This document shows, in pieces, positions 13,601 to 61,137 of a stretch of 64,000 bases of DNA. Source of the DNA: Acidimicrobiia bacterium (GTDB lineage: Bacteria; Actinomycetota; Acidimicrobiia; IMCC26256; PALSA-610); the NCBI GenBank assembly GCA_038323195.1, contig JBBQGQ010000005.1, positions 99,217 through 163,216 on the forward strand. Reading direction: 5' to 3'. The notes under the pieces are model-generated. The model saw only the letters and a program-made list of their open reading frames with translations. It did no database searches and was not told the origin of the DNA. How positions within the stretch are numbered: position 1 is the stretch's first letter; every line of letters starts with the position of its first letter. Made by a program: the position numbers and the translations under genes.

Positions 13601-13649
13601 CCGCTGACGAGACCCCGCTGACGAGACCCCGCTGACGAGACCCCGCTGA
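13601..13649. repeat. 14-bp tandem repeat CCGCTGACGAGACC x3.5
   Basis: Three perfect copies (13601-13614, 13615-13628, 13629-13642) plus a 7-nt partial copy, in the divergent intergenic region upstream of the ferredoxin gene. Confidence 0.95.
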
Positions 13650-14727: not shown

Positions 14728-15948
14728 GTGGACTTCGAGGAAACCGAAGACGAACGCGCGTTCCGAGTGGAGGTACGCGCGTGGCTCGACGCGCACGCGA
14801 AGCGGCGGGAGGCCGGAGAACGGTCCGATCACTCGTACATGCCGGGCGACGGCAATCCCGAGGCGGACGCCGCGCATGTGCGCGCGTGCAAGGAATGGCA
14901 GCGCATTCTCTACGACGGTGGCTGGGCCGGCATCACGTGGCCCGTGGCGGCCGGCGGGCGCGGTGGTCCGGGCTGGCAGCAACGGATCTTCAACGAGGAA
15001 CAGTCGCACTACAACGCCGCGGTCGGCGTGTTCGCGGTCGGCATCGCCATGGCCGGACCCACGATCATCGCGTGGGGCACTCCCGAGCAGCAGGAGCGGT
15101 TCCTGCCCTCGATGTTGCGGGGCGACGACGTGTGGTGCCAGCTGTTCTCCGAGCCGGGCGCGGGCTCCGACCTCGCGGGCCTGCGGACGCGTGCCGAGCG
15201 CGACGGCGACGAGTGGACGATCAACGGGCAGAAGGTCTGGACGTCGGGCGCGCACTACAGCGACTGGGGCCTCTTGCTCGCGCGCAGCGATCTCGACGCG
15301 CCGAAGCACAAGGGCATCACCGCGTTCCTGCTCGACATGCGTACGGCGGGGATCGACGTGCGCCCCTTGCGCCAGATCAACGGCGCGTCGCACTTCAACG
15401 AGGTGTTCCTCACCGACGTCCGGATCCCCGACGCGATGCGCCTGGGTCCGCCCGGAGGTGGTTGGCGGGCGGCGAACACGATGCTGTCGAACGAGCGGGC
15501 GATGATCGGCGGCGGCGGCCGGGTCGGCTTTCGCGATCTGCTCGCGCTCGCCAAGCGGTGTGGCGCGACCGGGGATGCGGTGCTGCGCCAGGAGCTCGTC
15601 CGGAGCTATACCCGGACCCAGATCATCAAGTGGCTCGGCTTGCGGGCGCGCAGCCGCAAGGATCAGGGCCTCGGTCCCGAGGCCTCGGTGCTGAAGCTGG
15701 CGGCGTCGCGCCGGCTCGAGCACGACGCCAACCTGGTGATGGAGCTCCAGGGCCCGCAATCGATGCTCTACGACGACGACGCGATCCAGCACGGGTACTG
15801 GCAGCAGCAGTTCCTCGGGCAGTGGAGCAGCCGCATCGGCGGTGGCACCGAGCAGATCCAGCGCAACGTGATCGGCGAACGGGTGCTCGGCTTGCCGAGC
15901 GAGCCGCGGCCCGGCAAGGACACGCCCTTCCGCGAGCTTCCTTCCTAA
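14728..15948 (+). CDS. acyl-CoA dehydrogenase family protein
   Basis: GTG start 3 nt after the SDR stop. 406 aa with typical ACAD N-terminal, middle and C-terminal layout (WCQLFSEPGAGSDLAGL...INGQKVWTSGA...). The C-terminal motif reads IGGGTEQIQ rather than YEGT. Confidence 0.9.
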   Translation: MDFEETEDERAFRVEVRAWLDAHAKRREAGERSDHSYMPGDGNPEADAAHVRACKEWQRILYDGGWAGITWPVAAGGRGGPGWQQRIFNEEQSHYNAAVGVFAVGIAMAGPTIIAWGTPEQQERFLPSMLRGDDVWCQLFSEPGAGSDLAGLRTRAERDGDEWTINGQKVWTSGAHYSDWGLLLARSDLDAPKHKGITAFLLDMRTAGIDVRPLRQINGASHFNEVFLTDVRIPDAMRLGPPGGGWRAANTMLSNERAMIGGGGRVGFRDLLALAKRCGATGDAVLRQELVRSYTRTQIIKWLGLRARSRKDQGLGPEASVLKLAASRRLEHDANLVMELQGPQSMLYDDDAIQHGYWQQQFLGQWSSRIGGGTEQIQRNVIGERVLGLPSEPRPGKDTPFRELPS

Positions 15949-15952
15949 CGGT

Positions 15953-16028
15953 CCGCGCTCGGCCCGCGGCCGGCGCGCAGTGCGCGCCAGCCGCGCTCGG
16001 CCCGCGGCCGGCGCGCAGTGCGCGCCAG
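15953..16028. repeat. perfect 38-bp tandem duplication containing a GC-rich palindrome
   Basis: CCGCGCTCGGCCCGCGGCCGGCGCGCAGTGCGCGCCAG occurs at 15953-15990 and again at 15991-16028. Each copy carries the inverted repeat GGCGCGCA-G-TGCGCGCC. Confidence 0.95.
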
Positions 16029-30224: not shown

Positions 30225-30268
30225 GACTACCGATCTTGCAGCTCGTGACTACCGATCTTGCAGCTCGA
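30225..30268. repeat. 22-bp tandem duplication (21/22 identical) spanning a stop codon
   Basis: GACTACCGATCTTGCAGCTCGT occurs at 30225-30246 and again, with one change, at 30247-30268. The second copy holds the last codons and TAG of rnd (minus strand). Confidence 0.95.
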
Positions 30269-31466: not shown

Positions 31467-32375
31467 TCATCGGAGCTCGGACCGCACCGCCGCGAGTTGC
31501 TCGAACGACCGCAACACCGGCGCCTGGTCGTCGGCGAGGTGACGCACGATGACGTCGGTGCAACCCGACGCCTGCAGGCCCTCGAACGCGTCGGCCACTC
31601 GGCTCGGTCCGCCGACGACCACCGCGGACGGGTCGAAGCCGCGATACCCACCGGCGATGATCGGATCGGCGACTGCGGCCGCCTCTTCGTCGGTCGCGGC
31701 GACGTGCACGTCCCGGCGCACCGCGATGCGGTTCGGTGCACGGCCGTGCCGCTCACATGCTTCGCGGTAGCTCTGTACGAGCGCCCCGACCTCGGTCGGG
31801 GTCGCCTCGGGCCCGATCAGGAAGGCATCACCGAGTCGGGCGGCGCGATCGATCGCGGGCGGAGACGCCGCGCCGATCCAGACCTCCAGCGGTTCCGGCG
31901 GCACCGGAGCGATGTGCGCCCGGTCGATCTTCCATAGTCCGTCGAGGGCCGTCACCGCCTCACCTCGGCACAACGCCCGCACGATCTCGAGCGCGGCCTC
32001 GAAACGCCGGGCGCGCTCGCGCAACGAGGTGTCGAAGACGCGGAACTGCTCGTCGCCCGCTCCGACCGCGCACTGCAGGACGAAGGGCCCGCGAGCGATC
32101 GCGGCGAGCGTGCCGATCTGCTCCGCGAGCAGCACTGGATGCCACAACGGCAACAGGAACAGCGCGCCCGCAGGCCGGTCGTCCCACTCGGCGAGTAGCC
32201 GTCCGAGGATCGGGACGTTCTGGTAGTAGGGCACGGGGACGTTGTGGTGGTCGCCGACGAAGAGGCTGTCGAGGCCGGCGTCGGCCGCGGCTCGCGCCCG
32301 TTCGACCATCCACCGCGCCCCGACCCGGGCGTCCATGGGCGCATACCCGCTCCGCAACGACACGCCTACTCGCAT
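31467..32375 (-). CDS. LLM-class flavin/F420-dependent oxidoreductase
   Basis: 302 aa. MRVGVSLRSG...DSLFVGDHH... indicates a luciferase-like TIM barrel. Confidence 0.8.
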   Translation of the reverse strand: MRVGVSLRSGYAPMDARVGARWMVERARAAADAGLDSLFVGDHHNVPVPYYQNVPILGRLLAEWDDRPAGALFLLPLWHPVLLAEQIGTLAAIARGPFVLQCAVGAGDEQFRVFDTSLRERARRFEAALEIVRALCRGEAVTALDGLWKIDRAHIAPVPPEPLEVWIGAASPPAIDRAARLGDAFLIGPEATPTEVGALVQSYREACERHGRAPNRIAVRRDVHVAATDEEAAAVADPIIAGGYRGFDPSAVVVGGPSRVADAFEGLQASGCTDVIVRHLADDQAPVLRSFEQLAAVRSELR

Positions 32376-32545
32376 GGCTCCCTCGCTGCGGCAAACCCTT
32401 CGGCCTGGCTCCGCTGCGTCCGCACGGTTTTCATGGCTCCCTCGCTGCGGCGCGCCCTTCGGCGCGCCTCCGCTGCGTCCGCACGGTTTTCATGGCTTCC
32501 TCGCTGCGGCGCGCCCTTGGGCGCGCCTCCGCTGCGTCCGCACGG
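32373..32545. repeat. 59-bp tandem repeat x3 beginning at the start codon of the LLM gene
   Basis: Units at 32373-32431, 32432-32490 and 32491-32545 (the last lacks ~4 nt). Units 2 and 3 carry the hairpin GGCGCGCC-CTTC/CTTG-GGCGCGCC. On the minus strand each unit ends with AGGGAGCC-ATG. Confidence 0.95.
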
Positions 32546-32571
32546 GTGCAGCCTCGCGCGAAGATGCATGC

Positions 32572-33084
32572 ATGGCGACTCTCGAACGTGATCTCACAGC
32601 CCTCGCGAAGCGTCGCGCCGAGCTGCGCGCGCAGTTCCTACGGGACGAGCGGCCCGAATCGAACGGTGGCGGCGTGCATCACCTTGCTTTGATCTGCGCC
32701 GATCCGGAGCGGACGATTCGCTTCTACCAGGAAGTGCTCGGCTTTCCCCTCGTCGAGCTCTTCGAGAACCGCGACTACGAAGGCTCGTCCCACTTCTTCT
32801 TCGACATCGGTGCGGGCAACATGCTCGCATTCTTCGACTTCCCGGGCCTGGGCCTCGAGCCCGTGCCCGAAGGACTCGGCGGGGTGCAGCACGTCGCCAT
32901 CTCGGTGACGCCGCCGACGTTCGAGATGCTGAAGCGCAGGCTCGACGACGCGGGCGTCGCGTACATCGGGCCCGACCGCGGCATCAAGGAGTCGGTGTAC
33001 TTCAAGGATCCGGACGGCATTCAGGTCGAGCTCATTCGCCAGCCGTTGATGGAAGTGCCCGAGAGCGCGCCGACGGAGGGTTGA
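32572..33084 (+). CDS. VOC (glyoxalase/bleomycin-resistance/dioxygenase) family protein
   Basis: ATG at 32572. GVHHLALICADPERTIRFYQEVLGF...GVQHVAISV...SVYFKDPDGIQVEL shows the paired beta-alpha-beta-beta-beta modules. Confidence 0.85.
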   Translation: MATLERDLTALAKRRAELRAQFLRDERPESNGGGVHHLALICADPERTIRFYQEVLGFPLVELFENRDYEGSSHFFFDIGAGNMLAFFDFPGLGLEPVPEGLGGVQHVAISVTPPTFEMLKRRLDDAGVAYIGPDRGIKESVYFKDPDGIQVELIRQPLMEVPESAPTEG

Positions 33085-51766: not shown

Positions 51767-53481
51767 GTGAGTCTGGAAGTGGCGGAGTCCCGAGCGCCCG
51801 CGAGGTGGGTATCCCGCCGAGCAGCGAGGGCGACAAAGCAAGCATCGTGGGTATCCCGCCGAGCAGCGAGGGCGACAAAGCAAGTATCGAAATTTACGAC
51901 ACGACGTTGCGGGATGGCTCGCAGCTCGAGGGGATCTCGCTGACCGTCGAGGACAAGCTGCGGATCGCGGAGCAACTCGACTGGCTCGGTGTGCACTACA
52001 TCGAAGCCGGTTGGCCGGGCGCGAACCCGAAGGACGACGAGCTGTTCCGGCGCGTGCCGAACGAGCTGAGGCTCGAGACCAGCACCCTCGTCGCGTTCGG
52101 GTCGACGCGTCGAGTCAAGGGCAAGGTCGACAGCGACGACACACTCCGCCACCTCGTCGAGGCGAATGTCGGGACCGTCTGCATCGTGGGCAAGTCTTGG
52201 GACTACCACGTCACCGAGGCACTGGGCACGACGCTCGACGAGGGTGTGGCGATGGTCGGCGATTCGGTCGAATTCCTGCGCGGCGCCGGGATGCAGGTGC
52301 TCTTCGACGCCGAGCACTTCTTCGACGGCTTCAAGCGCAATCCCGAGTTCTCGCTGCGCGTGCTCGAAGCCGCGGCGACGAACGGCGCGAGCCATCTCGT
52401 GCTCTGCGACACCAACGGCGGAGCGCTGCCACGCGAGGTCGAGCAGGCCGTGGCAGATGTCGTGCGTTACTTCGGTGCCGACGTCAAGATCGCGGTGCAT
52501 CTCCACGACGATGCCGGCACTGGAGTTGCGAACGCGCTCGCGGGGGTACTCGGGGGCGCCACACAGGTCCAGGGCACGATCAACGGTTACGGCGAGCGCA
52601 CGGGCAACTGCAATCTCACCACGATCATCCCGAATCTCACGCTCAAGATGGGCTACGAGACCATCCCGCTCGATCGCTTCGAGCGGCTCACTCCGGTTGC
52701 GCACCACATCGCCGAGCTTGTGAACATGCCCCTCAACCCGCAGGCCGCGTACGTGGGCCATTCCGCGTTCGCGCACAAGGCCGGGTTGCACACGAGCGCG
52801 ATCGCGAAGCGTCCCGACGCCTACGAGCACGTATCGCCCGAGGTCGTCGGGAACGGGACGCGGTTCGTGGTATCGGAGCTCGCGGGCAAGTCGACGCTCG
52901 GGCTCAAGGCCAAGGAGCTCGGCCTCGAGCTCGACGGACCGCAGCTGGCCGACGTGGTCGAGACGTTGAAGCGGCTCGAGCACGAGGGCTACCACTTCGA
53001 GGTTGCCGACGGCTCGTTGGAGTTGCTCATGCGCCGGGCAACGGGTTGGGAGCCCGGCTGGTTCCGAGTCGAGTCGTTCCGCGTGATCACCGACGACCTC
53101 GGCGGCGTCGACACCCTTACCGACAAGACCGGCGCGACCGTGATGACCGAAGCAACCGTCAAGGTCCACATTGGTGGTAGGCGAGTGGTGGCGACCGCCG
53201 AGGGCAACGGTCCGGTGAACGCGCTCGACACCGCGCTGCGAACCGCACTCGACGGCAATTTCCCCGCGCTCGAGCGAGTGCACCTGACCGACTACAAGGT
53301 GCGGGTGCTCGACACGAACAAGGGCACGGGCGCGGCGACTCGGGTGCTGATCGACTCCACCGACGGCAACGGCACGTGGACGACCATCGGCGTGAACGAG
53401 AACATCATCGAAGCCTCGTGGCAGGCGCTGCTCGACTCGATTCATTTCGGCCTGCTGCGCGCCGAGCTCGCCGGCGGCTGA
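51763..53481 (+). CDS. cimA: citramalate synthase-like LeuA paralogue
   Basis: ATG at 51763 in an ATGA overlap with the ilvE stop; alternative GTG starts lie at 51805 and 51847. IYDTTLRDGSQ, HLHDDAGTGVANALAGV and a C-terminal LeuA_dimer-type domain. From memory the layout resembles the TIGR00977 citramalate synthase class; the substrate is not proven. Confidence 0.8.
   Translation: MSESGSGGVPSAREVGIPPSSEGDKASIVGIPPSSEGDKASIEIYDTTLRDGSQLEGISLTVEDKLRIAEQLDWLGVHYIEAGWPGANPKDDELFRRVPNELRLETSTLVAFGSTRRVKGKVDSDDTLRHLVEANVGTVCIVGKSWDYHVTEALGTTLDEGVAMVGDSVEFLRGAGMQVLFDAEHFFDGFKRNPEFSLRVLEAAATNGASHLVLCDTNGGALPREVEQAVADVVRYFGADVKIAVHLHDDAGTGVANALAGVLGGATQVQGTINGYGERTGNCNLTTIIPNLTLKMGYETIPLDRFERLTPVAHHIAELVNMPLNPQAAYVGHSAFAHKAGLHTSAIAKRPDAYEHVSPEVVGNGTRFVVSELAGKSTLGLKAKELGLELDGPQLADVVETLKRLEHEGYHFEVADGSLELLMRRATGWEPGWFRVESFRVITDDLGGVDTLTDKTGATVMTEATVKVHIGGRRVVATAEGNGPVNALDTALRTALDGNFPALERVHLTDYKVRVLDTNKGTGAATRVLIDSTDGNGTWTTIGVNENIIEASWQALLDSIHFGLLRAELAGG
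51805..51888. repeat. 42-bp in-frame tandem duplication (41/42) in the 5' end of the cimA-like gene
   Basis: Copies at 51805-51846 and 51847-51888, each beginning with GTG. They encode VGIPPSSEGDKASI twice, directly before the conserved IYDTTLRDG core. Confidence 0.95.
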
Positions 53482-59916: not shown

Positions 59917-60270
59917 GTGGTGACCGTGCCTCCGGCTAAAAAGGCAACGAAGAGAAGGGCTGCCAAGAAGGCTCCGGCCAAGCGCAAGGCCGTGAAGAAG
60001 GCGCCCGCGAAGCGGAAAGCAGCTAAGAAGCGGACCGCGAAGAGAAAAGCACCGGCCAAGCGCAAGGCGGCGAAGAAGACCGTCAAGCGCAAGGCGGCGA
60101 AGAAGACCGTCAAGCGCAAGGCGGCCAAGAAGCGCAAGGCTCCGGCCAAGCGCAAGGCAGCCAAGAAGCGTAAGGCTCCGGCGAAGAAGCGTCGCAAAGC
60201 CGCGAAGAAGGCGCCGGCCAAGCGTGCCGTGCGTCGCACAACGCGCAAGCGCACAACGAAGAAGAAATAG
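59917..60270 (+). CDS. Lys/Ala/Arg-rich histone-H1-like basic protein (PAKRKAAKK repeats)
   Basis: GTG preceded by AGGAAAGG. 117 aa, almost entirely K/A/R/P/T repeats, like the C-terminal tails of mycobacterial HupB or Streptomyces HupS. The DNA has internal 27-36-bp repeats. Confidence 0.75.
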   Translation: MVTVPPAKKATKRRAAKKAPAKRKAVKKAPAKRKAAKKRTAKRKAPAKRKAAKKTVKRKAAKKTVKRKAAKKRKAPAKRKAAKKRKAPAKKRRKAAKKAPAKRAVRRTTRKRTTKKK

Positions 60271-60344: not shown

Positions 60345-61070
60345 TCAGAGGTTGTCGATGCGGGCGAACGACTCGGCCGCGCGCAGCCCGGCCCGGAGGG
60401 CAGCGGCGCGGGTCTCGGCGTGGACCTTCTCCGCGAACGCGGCGCGCTCCTCGTCGGGGCGCTCGTCGATCGCCATCGTGGAGCGCCACTGACTCCGATG
60501 CGCGAGCAACGCCTCGATCTTGCGATCGACGTAACCGTCGACGTTCTCGACGTGATCGACCCGGCCCGGCTCGAAGCAGAGCAAGGTCGACGGCCGGTGC
60601 GGTGCCACTCCTTGCTCGGGGAAGAAATGCGGGTCGCGCGCGGCGACGATCCCGGAAGTGACGAGCAACCCCGCGTGGTGATGGTCGGGATGGATCCGGT
60701 ACGGGTGCCACGGGTCGTGTCCGAGCACGACGTCGGGGCGAGCCTGACGGATCACGCGGCAGACGGCGGCGCGCGGTGCCAGCGTGCTGTCGAGCTCACC
60801 GTCGACGAAGCGCAGGAACACGACGTCGACGGCTCCGAGGATGGCGACGGCGTCGCGTTGCTCGTCTTCGCGCTTCGCGATGAGCGCCGCGAGGTCGGCG
60901 GCACCGTCCCAAGTGCCCTTGGAGCCGTCGGTGCAGACGCAGAGGGTCACCTGCGTGCCGGCGGCCGCCCACTTCGCGAGCGTCGCACCACAGCCGAACT
61001 CGATGTCGTCGGCGTGGGCACCGATTGCCAGCGCGCGCCGCGGGATCGGGAGGTTGACGGCGATCGTCAT
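60345..61070 (-). CDS. PIG-L family deacetylase (LmbE/MshB-like)
   Basis: 241 aa. AIGAHADDIEFGCGATLAKW and the downstream HPDHHH motif. Confidence 0.85.
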   Translation of the reverse strand: MTIAVNLPIPRRALAIGAHADDIEFGCGATLAKWAAAGTQVTLCVCTDGSKGTWDGAADLAALIAKREDEQRDAVAILGAVDVVFLRFVDGELDSTLAPRAAVCRVIRQARPDVVLGHDPWHPYRIHPDHHHAGLLVTSGIVAARDPHFFPEQGVAPHRPSTLLCFEPGRVDHVENVDGYVDRKIEALLAHRSQWRSTMAIDERPDEERAAFAEKVHAETRAAALRAGLRAAESFARIDNL

Positions 61071-61137
61071 GGCGCAGATGTCATGGCGCGGATGTCGTGG
61101 GCGCGGATGTCTTGGGCGCGATTGTCATGGCGCGGGC
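61066..61137. repeat. 14-15-bp tandem repeat x5 spanning a start codon and the upstream stop codon
   Basis: Plus-strand units are GTCATGGCGCAGAT, GTCATGGCGCGGAT, GTCGTGGGCGCGGAT, GTCTTGGGCGCGATT and GTCATGGCGCGGGC. On the minus strand units 1, 2 and 5 read ..GCGCC-ATGA-C. Confidence 0.9.

Follow-up and report, generated by a model that had tools for sequence, protein, structure and literature searches.

A dispersed, probably mobile family of mini-cistron repeats with MIRU-like architecture at start codons in soil Acidimicrobiia

INTRODUCTION

MIRUs have been used in the strain typing of tuberculosis for 25 years and are usually regarded as a mycobacterial peculiarity. To our knowledge, neither how these elements move nor why their insertion at start codons is tolerated has been settled. 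The description of MIRUs originates with Supply et al. (1997), as summarized in PMC12548453 and PMC3184786. They are 40 to 100 bp long, are present in 40 to 50 copies, contain ORFs that overlap the adjacent genes, and are accompanied by tetranucleotide direct repeats at filled sites (PMC3184786). They lie at start codons and operon junctions and read in the same direction as the genes, and the stop codon of their small ORF overlaps the start codon of the host gene (-4, NTGA) (PMC12548453, PMC3184786).

Three other kinds of systems invite comparison. REP, BIME, and REPIN (RAYT) elements are short, G+C-rich, hairpin-forming, extragenic, and dispersed, can cluster, and have a family-specific sequence in each genome; REPs are typically found after genes, in inverted pairs, and without a Shine-Dalgarno (SD) sequence, start codon, or ORF (PMC3184786 and general knowledge). 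MITEs such as Correia/NEMIS, ERIC, and RUP are small, nonautonomous, dispersed elements with target-site direct repeats, some of which are cotranscribed with their neighbors and alter neighbor expression. In bicistronic designs and NTGA gene pairs, a short leader ORF carries the SD sequence of the next cistron and its stop overlaps the start of that cistron. Coupling through a bicistronic leader ORF delivers ribosomes to the next cistron and frees it from local mRNA structure (PMC12548453). A literature search returned no description of MIRU-like elements outside mycobacteria, nor of the family reported here in Acidimicrobiia.

RESULTS AND DISCUSSION

A tandem array between two divergent genes

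The stretch of DNA analyzed here (the window, 64 kb) contains a gene of the luciferase-like monooxygenase (LLM) family and a divergent gene of the VOC/glyoxalase family, separated by an array of short repeats. The features of the locus are as follows.

31467..32375, minus strand: LLM gene, 302 aa, Pfam Bac_luciferase
32366..32434, minus strand: mini-ORF B, MKTVRTQRSQAEGFAAAREPCE and stop; its TAG falls 10 nt into the LLM gene, in another frame
32376..32425, minus strand: proximal unit core, chimeric between short type (CCAGG) and long type (CCGAAGGG); nhmmer E=1.7e-13
32390..32409, minus strand: proximal unit hairpin, 7/8 pairs when read on the sense strand (one A-U and two G.U among them)
32426..32434, minus strand: linker ATGAAAACC between middle and proximal units; its ATG opens mini-ORF B and shares an ATGA with the stop of mini-ORF A
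32431..32493, minus strand: mini-ORF A, MKTVRTQRRRAEGRAAAREP and stop; ATGA overlap with mini-ORF B
32435..32484, minus strand: middle unit core, long-hairpin type, SD-like AGGGAG near the 3' end; nhmmer E=1.9e-16
32449..32468, minus strand: middle unit hairpin, perfect GGCGCGCC-N4-GGCGCGCC
32485..32493, minus strand: linker ATGAAAACC between distal and middle units; its ATG, which shares nucleotides with the TGA of mini-ORF 0, opens mini-ORF A
32490..32543, minus strand: mini-ORF 0, GTG 32543 to TGA 32490-32492, 17 codons, VRTQRRRAQGRAAARKP and stop; the stop overlaps the ATG of mini-ORF A
32494..32543, minus strand: distal unit core, long-hairpin type, GTGCGGACGCAGCGGAG-GCGCGCCCAAGGGCGCGC-CGCAGCGAGGAAGCC; nhmmer long-type profile E=5.8e-14
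32508..32527, minus strand: distal unit hairpin, 8-bp G+C stem and 4-nt loop, perfect GGCGCGCC-N4-GGCGCGCC
32544..32571, minus strand: ancestral divergent spacer gcatgcatcttcgcgcgaggctgcaccc, 28 nt, the entire spacer in element-free relatives
32572..33084, plus strand: VOC/glyoxalase-family gene, divergent, 170 aa

Positions 32376 to 32543 hold three 59-bp units arranged head to tail. Every unit contains an SD-like AGGGAG, a G+C hairpin, and an ATG. The first-pass annotation had already described a 59-bp unit in three copies, and both TRF (32373-32545, period of 59 nt, 2.9 copies, 92% matches) and a repeat search (in-register copies at 32373-32431, 32432-32490, and 32491-32549) agree with it; the central hairpins were the only inverted repeats recovered by the latter. 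Adjacent units are 81 to 90% identical. The copy number of three is that of the assembly, and the contigs of the two closest relatives (L001 and L002) end inside the array. The ORFs bear out the starts assigned to the LLM gene (ATG at 32375) and the VOC gene (32572). Most of the closest LLM orthologues among the matches listed are likewise 302 aa long, which supports the ATG at 32375.

Mini-ORFs A and B, with the ATGA between them, had been identified in the first-pass annotation with the same translations, but the chain has a third, distal member that had been missed, mini-ORF 0. Its GTG (32543) is preceded at 8 nt by an SD-like GAGG (32552-32555) inside the ancestral spacer, which the distal unit core directly adjoins without the usual 5' ATG linker. 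Mini-ORF 0 shares its frame with a 35-aa ORF of the ORF list. At the gene-proximal end, the last junction of the array, where mini-ORF B runs into the LLM gene, has a spacing of -10, not -4. The LLM ATG follows the AGGGAG of the proximal unit (32378-32383) at 2 nt and its GAGG at 5 nt, a spacing that is short for a canonical SD. In L001 and L002, an upstream ATG is in frame with the LLM gene. Precise coupling to the LLM gene is therefore not conserved in the lineage of the window and these two relatives.

The hairpins are perfect in the distal and middle units, as annotated before. The gene-proximal one is not simply degenerate, as it had been called, since GCCAGGCC pairs with GGTTTGCC on the LLM-sense strand, where a local 6-bp hairpin is predicted by RNAfold. 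In its 5' half (CCAGG), the proximal hairpin agrees with the short-hairpin subtype present at the LLM site of relatives. Long subpatterns of the unit were not found elsewhere in the 64-kb window (shuffles, 0), and neither exact and mismatch patterns nor two nhmmer profiles detected further copies there beyond the three units. A promoter/terminator consensus scan of 32200-32900 found nothing, a result that is uninformative for this phylum.

A dispersed repeat family

The unit was detected at no fewer than 115 loci in 22 Acidimicrobiia/Actinomycetota MAGs in an exact-arm pattern scan, which covered one genome per species and used a pattern with perfectly conserved arms, so that the sample is biased to such copies. 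Among the matches listed there were 168 units in 124 arrays, of which 93 were single and 31 tandem (2 to 5 copies), with 21 arrays in one MAG of ~5.5 Mb and 18 in another. Units are 50 to 60 nt in size, and tandem periods include 50 nt (22 cases) and 59 nt (11 cases). Among the matches listed, 34 of 44 tandem periods equal 2 modulo 3, as a succession of -4 overlaps requires; the period classes of 51 and 60 nt give in-frame read-through.

The census bears directly on the idea, raised in the first-pass annotation, of a neutral duplication. Both the similarity of adjacent units and the contigs of the closest relatives that break inside the array would fit a purely local duplication, in tandem, of the 5' region of the LLM gene or an artifact of assembly. 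However, the unit is found at at least 115 other loci, the three units differ from one another, the proximal one also in subtype, and arrays of two to three units are present at the same site in independent assemblies of other species (L019, L068, L126, and L127). We regard a local origin as hardly credible.

The conserved parts of the unit are two arms (GTGCGGACGCAGCGGAG and CGCAGCGAGGGAGCC) and a CCATG(TGA) tail, while the hairpin between the arms is variable. The commonest subtypes have a stem of only 3 to 4 bp (GCCA-GGGA-TGGC and GCC-ACGGAC-GGC). Each genome has its own dominant hairpin subtype, which suggests amplification or homogenization within genomes. In the long subtype, the 8-bp stem is 94.7% paired, with both-side changes in four pairs, and the covariation was reached by 0 of 500 shuffles. 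On the sense strand, G.T cells of the stem outnumber A.C cells (12 versus 4); as the cells are not independent, this wobble bias is suggestive of the strand on which the hairpin forms. A search of plasmids gave no match (blastn, distant mode), and neither did a search of viral contigs with the exact family pattern. The family is a dispersed, probably mobile repeat of 50 to 59 nt in soil Acidimicrobiia.

Position at gene starts and overlapping mini-ORFs

The downstream gene is co-oriented with the element in 107 of 118 arrays and in the opposite orientation in 7. The upstream gene is found in either orientation (58 versus 42), and ~40% of the arrays occupy divergent intergenic regions. An in-frame ATG, GTG, or TTG is located 2 to 11 nt 3' of GGGAG in 86 of 107 arrays. 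Where the upstream gene is co-oriented, its stop lies 6 to 23 nt 5' of the core in 39 of 58 cases, mostly at -9, as TGACCGTGC; the commonest upstream-gene stop is TGACC, directly 5' of the core. By the first-pass annotation's own criterion, its reading would have failed if the unit were dispersed and unconnected with start codons at other sites; the copies are indeed dispersed but strongly tied to start codons.

At 63 of 88 junctions, the stop codon of an upstream ORF (10 codons or longer) falls within -5 to +4 of the gene start, 50 of them with the 4-nt RTGA stop/start overlap; a coupled stop is absent at 25. The overlap is retained across subtypes that differ in length and frame. The termination-reinitiation cascade previously suggested for the LLM gene thereby gains ground as an intrinsic design of the whole family. 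Downstream genes are heterogeneous: 95 proteins matched 106 Pfam families, none of which was matched by more than four, and transposase families were absent among the 25 most frequent. A regulon was rejected because of this functional heterogeneity.

The position of the copies is also informative with respect to a REP/RAYT-type or other DNA-level hairpin element. Here the hairpin would be the functional part, for example, as the site of an HUH/Y1 transposase on single-stranded DNA, while the SD sequence, ATG, and mini-ORFs would be incidental and the effect on the host would be mRNA stabilization or nil. The G+C-rich covarying stem of the long subtype, the dispersed and tandem copies, and the genome-specific subtypes, with the amplification they suggest, could all be explained in this way, and G.T is the most tolerated mismatch in DNA hairpins too. 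However, it is the arms and the CCATG(TGA) tail that are conserved, not the stem, which has just 3 to 4 bp in the commonest subtypes. Furthermore, the copies are direct, head to tail, without inverted pairs, and lie in sense orientation 5' of starts (107 versus 7) and not after stops, and the stop/start overlap is kept in subtypes of differing length and frame. A DNA-level hairpin element is therefore considered unlikely.

Of the REP/MITE-like nature proposed in the first-pass annotation, the dispersed and probably mobile repeat stands, whereas the position and arrangement are unlike those of REPs. The family resembles MITEs in being small, dispersed, and flanked by direct repeats at filled sites, but it has no known parent IS and its position at start codons is very precise. 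Terminal inverted repeats were not found in the family unit, whose two ends, 5' GTGCGGACGC and 3' ...GAGGGAGCC, are not complementary.

Empty and filled sites

Two orthologous sites were compared in empty and filled forms. At the LLM site, the empty form reads CAT-28 nt-ATGAAAATC (L003, L005, and L006) and the filled form ATGAAGATC-(41-nt core)-ATGAACATT (L125), with ATGAARAYC duplicated at the filled LLM start. At an XdhC/CoxI operon junction, the empty form is ctgGTGAc (L129 to L132) and the filled form ctgGTGAC-C(core)AT-GTGAC (L081 and L084), a 50-nt insertion flanked by GTGAC repeats. In both comparisons, 50 nt is inserted exactly at the start codon, with flanking direct repeats. Presence or absence at orthologous sites differs between close relatives, even in genomes that carry the family elsewhere. 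A neighbor-joining tree is equally compatible with one old insertion and two precise losses. Family-wide, flank duplication is only ~2-fold above that of shuffled partners, and the direct repeats cannot be delimited unambiguously (5 to 9 nt); for these reasons, neither an exact target-site duplication nor a transposition chemistry is assigned.

Relatives carry zero, one, two, or three units at the LLM site. L125 has one and L127 has two at 96% coding sequence identity, and unit types at the site differ between lineages. This variation could point to gene-specific, copy-number-tuned translational control (a contingency locus) of the LLM gene, and perhaps the VOC gene, in which the number of coupled mini-ORFs and hairpins would set expression. 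The array adds ~168 nt between the two divergent starts, so both promoters must have been rearranged, which would also fit such a role. However, the same element precedes ~100 unrelated genes and has no link to LLM function, and the frame relationships at the LLM site are not conserved, as in L001 and L002. Such tuning of the LLM gene is quite improbable, and the LLM-specific control device entertained in the first-pass annotation is not supported. The array did not arise by a local accident, nor is it a device particular to the LLM gene.

The 41-nt element is 100% identical in L125, L128, and L121, against 66 to 71% identity at third codon positions in the LLM gene next to it, a contrast that we count, with the genome-specific subtypes, toward amplification or homogenization within genomes. 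Conservation of the arms across species, extreme and well above that of synonymous sites in the neighboring gene, could reflect a conserved cis-regulatory RNA motif (a 5'-untranslated-region operator) bound by a global RNA-binding protein or small RNA and defining a posttranscriptional regulon. The covarying hairpin with its sense-strand wobble bias and the constant position beside the SD sequence would be in line with such a motif. In contrast, a permissive Rfam scan of 32250-32700 returned only noise (best E=6 to 9, far below gathering scores), the downstream functions are heterogeneous, and presence or absence at orthologous sites changes between close relatives. Identical units in tandem and genome-specific subtypes likewise count against it, and we consider this explanation very improbable.

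A probable mini-cistron inserted at start codons

The best explanation is that the three 59-bp units of the window are a VNTR-like tandem array of a dispersed, probably mobile family of 50- to 59-nt mini-cistrons in soil Acidimicrobiia, a reading that we consider likely. It builds on what was observed of the family, namely, its positions, orientation, overlaps, empty and filled sites, and copy-number variation. Each unit is a self-contained mini-cistron, with a start codon in the short 5' linker, arms around a hairpin, an SD-like GAGGGAG, and an RTGA stop. It sits exactly at the start codon of a host gene, with direct repeats on both sides that include this codon. The original ribosome-binding site and start codon of the host gene would now open the mini-ORF. 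A translating ribosome could melt the hairpin, terminate at the overlapping stop, and reinitiate on the host gene, aided by the SD sequence of the element. We propose that, as the mini-ORF would deliver ribosomes to the host gene, insertion would cost little expression and be tolerated.

Growth and shrinkage of arrays could result from reinsertion at the element's own start codon and/or from slippage or unequal recombination. For the array of the window, mini-ORF 0 would be opened by the ancestral SD sequence and GTG 32543 and would pass ribosomes through ATGA overlaps to mini-ORF A and then to mini-ORF B, which ends 10 nt into the LLM gene. From sequence we infer that the array is transcribed throughout and that its mini-ORFs are translated and coupled, as well as the mode of mobility.

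A more far-reaching version is speculative and, in our judgment, doubtful. The family may be an active start-codon-homing mobile element whose arms and strand-specific hairpin are recognized at the RNA or single-strand level. Each insertion would restore the RTGA target, and arrays of mixed unit types would be accounted for in this way. MIRU-type, ribosome-delivering mini-cistrons would then be a general, independently evolved strategy of actinobacterial (Actinomycetota) repeats. If this is true, presence/absence profiling over the 22 or more genomes, which carry different subtypes, could reveal the machinery that moves MIRU-like elements.

Comparison with MIRUs and implications

The family matches the published description of MIRUs, with putative translational coupling and mobility. 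Its unit size (50 to 60 nt) falls within 40 to 100 bp, there are up to ~20 loci per genome among the matches listed, and units are single or in tandem arrays of variable copy number (VNTR). Like MIRUs, they are located at start codons and gene junctions and oriented like the downstream gene, and they contain an internal small ORF with a -4 overlap (50 of 88 junctions; -10 at the window's own last junction). Direct repeats accompany filled sites (GTGAC at XdhC and ATGAARAYC at LLM), and the hosts of both are high-G+C Actinomycetota. Cotranscription with the flanking genes, as in MIRUs, is predicted; the G.U wobbles of the stem on the sense strand (12 versus 4) are only suggestive in this respect. 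The family differs from MIRUs in its host class, Acidimicrobiia and not Mycobacteriales, in the 8-bp covarying hairpin of one subtype, and in that ~40% of its arrays lie in divergent intergenic regions and not inside operons. Likewise, bicistronic designs and NTGA gene pairs share the short leader ORF, but they are fixed gene-pair features or engineered parts, whereas the family is repeated and apparently mobile.

Comparison with one MIRU sequence, MIRU292 of M. avium (PMC7977185), by nhmmer with both family profiles and by local alignment revealed no significant similarity; only the 9-mer GCGCAGCGA is shared, and 8 to 18% of shuffles score equally well. Distant homology to other classes of MIRUs is possible. 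The design common to both, which combines a mini-ORF and an SD sequence with a stop/start overlap of -4 and is inserted at start codons, recurs in a sequence-unrelated family of a distant actinobacterial class, which suggests that it is either ancient or convergent. The family offers many genomes and subtypes for comparative study of the mechanism.

The arrays also have practical consequences. They break short-read assemblies, as in the L001 and L002 contigs that end within one, and they can mislead gene callers on start codons, as with the XdhC homologues, which are called at either 259 or 266 aa.

Repeat array at the LLM gene and empty sites in relatives

The spacer between the divergent VOC and LLM genes contains a repeat with a period of 59 nt, 2.9 copies and 92% matches (TRF; 32373-32545), which a repeat search resolved into three in-register copies (32373-32431, 32432-32490, and 32491-32549). 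The triplicate 59-bp unit of the first-pass annotation is thus real and had been accurately described, and its translations of two upstream ORFs, uORF-A and uORF-B, were matched exactly. A third mini-ORF accompanies these two; it runs from GTG 32543, encodes VRTQRRRAQGRAAARKP, and overlaps the uORF-A ATG with its TGA.

31467-32375, minus strand, LLM gene (302-aa luciferase-like monooxygenase)
32366-32434, minus strand, mini-ORF B (uORF-B)
32431-32493, minus strand, mini-ORF A (uORF-A)
32490-32543, minus strand, mini-ORF 0
From 32572, plus strand, VOC gene (glyoxalase/VOC family)

The ATG at 32375 is supported as the LLM start by most of the closest orthologues, which are also 302 aa long. Long sub-patterns of the unit had no second site in the 64-kb window (0 in shuffles), and two nhmmer family profiles detected no units there beyond the three of the array.

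Three relatives (loci L003, L005, and L006; 86 to 87% protein identity) have the same divergent VOC-LLM pair with a spacer of just 28 nt, CAT-gccttcatcatcgcgcgaggctccaggc-ATG. The window retains those 28 nt (32544-32571), including a GAGG 8 nt before GTG 32543, and has ~168 extra nt before the LLM ATG; by this comparison, the array is an insertion. The closest relatives, L001 and L002 (97% LLM identity), are also repeat bearing. Their linker measures 10 nt and their proximal unit is 9 nt shorter than that of the window, which puts the upstream ATG and LLM in one frame; even the nearest relatives thus do not share the exact frame relation of the window. The contigs of these two loci (L001, 1-93; L002, 1-87) terminate within the array, as expected if arrays break short-read assemblies.

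Empty LLM starts read ...ggc ATGAAAATC ggc, and the filled start of L125 reads ...agc ATGAAGATC [GTGC...GGGAGCC] ATGAACATT ggc. The filled plan recurs in L056, L062, L116, L121, and L128, whose middles belong to three subtypes, and arrays of 2 to 3 units occupy the site in L019, L068, L126, and L127. Except in L019, where the expected start codon of the gene-proximal mini-ORF is ATA instead of ATG, a mini-ORF terminates at the LLM start with the ATGA overlap in each of these loci. In the window lineage the overlap was lost, as the second codon of LLM there begins with C. In a neighbor-joining tree of LLM proteins, all major clades included occupied sites, and the empty sites fell into two nested clades, a distribution that would reflect either an old insertion precisely lost twice or a recurrent target. 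Across L125, L128, and L121, identity is 100% for the 41-nt element but just 66 to 71% at third codon positions of the neighboring gene, a contrast suggestive of constraint, of gene conversion, or of recent arrival.

A dispersed repeat family

One genome per species was scanned with the pattern GGACGCAGCGGAG-N10-35-GCAGCGAGGRAG, a search biased to perfect-arm copies. It identified at least 115 loci in at least 22 genomes, all listed ones being Acidimicrobiia/Actinomycetota MAGs, and the best-sampled genomes contained at least 21, 18, and 12 arrays. The search for copies elsewhere, proposed earlier as a check for REP/MITE-like elements, therefore revealed a dispersed family. No copy was found on plasmids (blastn, distant mode) or viral contigs (exact family pattern). 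With up to two mismatches per arm, the matches listed comprised 124 arrays with 168 units, 93 of the arrays single and 31 tandem with 2 to 5 copies; among them, tandem periods were 50 (22 cases), 51 (6), 53 (1), 59 (11), 60 (3), and 67 nt (1). The consensus is (R)TGACC-GTGC-GGACGCAGCGGAG-[variable middle]-CGCAGCGAGGGAG-CC-ATG-TGA, and the dominant form of the middle differs genome by genome.

Forms of the variable middle
CCAGGGATGG
CCACGGACGG
CCAGGATGG
CCGCTCTTG
19-nt G+C hairpin (the type in the window)

Association with start codons

Family members are linked to start codons. Coding context was called by open frames with high GC3, without a gene caller, and the counts that follow are among the matches listed. 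The downstream gene shared the orientation of the element in 107 arrays and ran against it in 7, and upstream gene orientation was mixed (58 versus 42). An in-frame start lay 2 to 11 nt past GGGAG in 86 of the 107 arrays (GTG, 46; ATG, 37; TTG, 3), and of 58 co-oriented upstream genes, 39 ended 6 to 23 nt ahead of the core, most commonly with the TGA of TGACCGTGC. Of 88 junctions, 63 had an ORF of 10 or more codons that crossed the unit and stopped between -5 and +4 relative to the gene start; 50 of the 63 had the 4-nt RTGA overlap. Both size classes arrive at this overlap, via different frames: 50-nt units with a 36-nt core read GTG ACC GTG CGG ... GGA GCC ATG TGA (GTGA), and units with 35- and 44-nt cores read ATG ARA ACC GTG CGG ... 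AGG GAG CCA TGA (ATGA). Tandem periods were 2 mod 3, the condition for a chain of -4 overlaps, in 34 of 44 cases. About 40% of the arrays lie in divergent spacers, as in the window.

A regulon was also considered. As the 95 downstream proteins fell into 106 Pfam families, each matched by at most 4, their functions are unrelated and this explanation was rejected.

The junction of an XdhC/CoxI operon presents, on sequence comparison, the same picture as the LLM site. Empty junctions (L129 to L132) read ctgGTGAc, a 4-nt stop/start overlap, and filled ones (L081 and L084) read ctgGTGAC-C[core]AT-GTGAC-tgtc, a 50-nt insertion between GTGAC repeats. Family members occupy eight other places in the L132 genome, yet the junction there is empty, while a relative at 94% identity has the site filled, indicating recent gain or loss. 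XdhC/CoxI homologues downstream of the element (L081/L084; proteins P0122, P0127, and P0128) are 266 aa in some records versus 259 aa in most, which suggests that gene callers chose a start within the element.

Hairpins and a possible route of translation

In long-type units, 94.7% of stem cells were paired, both-sided changes occurred in 4 of 8 pairs, and the covariation score was matched by 0 of 500 shuffles; on these measures, covariation maintains the stem. The excess of G.T over A.C in sense-strand stem cells (12 versus 4) hints that it is relevant in the mRNA-sense strand. However, with a stem of only 3 to 4 bp in short subtypes, the hairpin cannot be what is essential to the element. 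The proximal hairpin, previously termed degenerate, has indeed diverged in sequence but has not lost pairing: 7 of 8 pairs remain on the LLM-sense strand (A-U, two G.U), and RNAfold drew the local hairpin in minus-strand but not in plus-strand RNA. In L001 and L002, G-to-A changes in both arms of the distal hairpin (GGCGCACC/GGCACGCC) disrupt pairing. The commonest short subtype (e.g., L012, L014, and L021) has the loop and stem GCCA-GGGA-UGGC, i.e., CAGGGAUG, which we take to resemble a CsrA/RsmA-type GGA-in-loop motif. Rfam returned no match for the family unit; the sole related match, RsmW, was noise (E=6).

The window array is mixed. Two of its units are of the long-hairpin type; the proximal one has the 5' half of a short subtype (CCAGG), the subtype adjoining LLM in L001, L019, L121, and L125. 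Mixed arrays fit better with repeated insertion at the start codon that the element itself carries, or with inter-unit conversion, than with simple slippage, and either process would explain the six symmetric substitutions noted earlier in the proximal hairpin.

In the mechanism we consider most likely, the ancestral ribosome-binding site (GAGG, 32552-32555) and GTG 32543 would open mini-ORF 0, and ribosomes would move on to mini-ORFs A and B through termination-reinitiation at ATGA, unwinding the three hairpins on the way. Ribosomes would then stop 10 nt within LLM and re-initiate at ATG 32375, assisted by GAGGGAG. Coupling declines as the overlap exceeds -4 and in some systems works at ~-10 (PMC12548453); with its ~-10 overlap, the last step is therefore probably weaker in the window than in relatives that keep ATGA. 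A promoter scan of 32200-32900, with a consensus uninformative for the host phylum, found none.

Comparison with known repeats

MIRUs are 40 to 100 bp long, occur in 40 to 50 copies, have tetranucleotide direct repeats at filled sites, and contain ORFs overlapping adjacent genes (PMC3184786), and the Acidimicrobiia family shares each of these architectural features. However, comparison by family profiles and local alignment with one MIRU sequence, M. avium MIRU292 (PMC7977185), gave only a shared 9-mer, and 8 to 18% of shuffles scored equally. The element thus appears MIRU-like in its working but cannot be called a sequence member of the MIRU family. Of the REP/MITE-like option raised in the first-pass annotation, the dispersed repeat stands; the family differs from REP in position and arrangement, and the repeat search of the window found no terminal inverted repeats in the unit. 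Our literature search turned up neither an account of such elements in Acidimicrobiia nor one of "MIRU-like" elements elsewhere. The best explanation for the array is that it consists of tandem units from a hitherto undescribed family of MIRU-like mini-cistron repeats that is associated with start codons in Acidimicrobiia.

Other repeats in the window

A perfect 38-nt x 2 tandem repeat (15953-16028) lies between the stop of a plus-strand ORF (14728-15948) and ATG 16039; each unit has a hairpin, GGCGCGC-AGT-GCGCGCC, and its sequence is unrelated to the LLM-site family. A 42-nt x 2 tandem repeat (51805-51889; 97%) is located directly 5' of the conserved N terminus of an ORF (EIYDTTLRDGSQ), in frame (14 codons), and has GAGCAGCGAGGGCGA, similar to the family 3' arm GCGCAGCGAGGGAGCC; from its N-terminal motif, the ORF is presumably isopropylmalate/citramalate-synthase-like. 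Neither repeat was found in the 132 family/relative loci compared. Again near a start codon, a perfect 22-nt x 2 repeat (GACTACCGATCTTGCAGCTCGT; 30225-30267) joins an RNase D-like gene (stop, 30249-30251) and a second LLM gene (start, 30206). Overlapping 18/27/30/36-nt coding repeats at 59965-60191, AAG/GCG rich (KRKAAKK-like), are probably the lysine/alanine-rich tail of a DNA-binding protein. Shorter repeats are a perfect 14-nt x 3.5 repeat (CCGCTGACGAGACC; 13601-13649) and a 15-nt x 4.9 repeat (GTCATGGCGCGGAT; 61060-61135).
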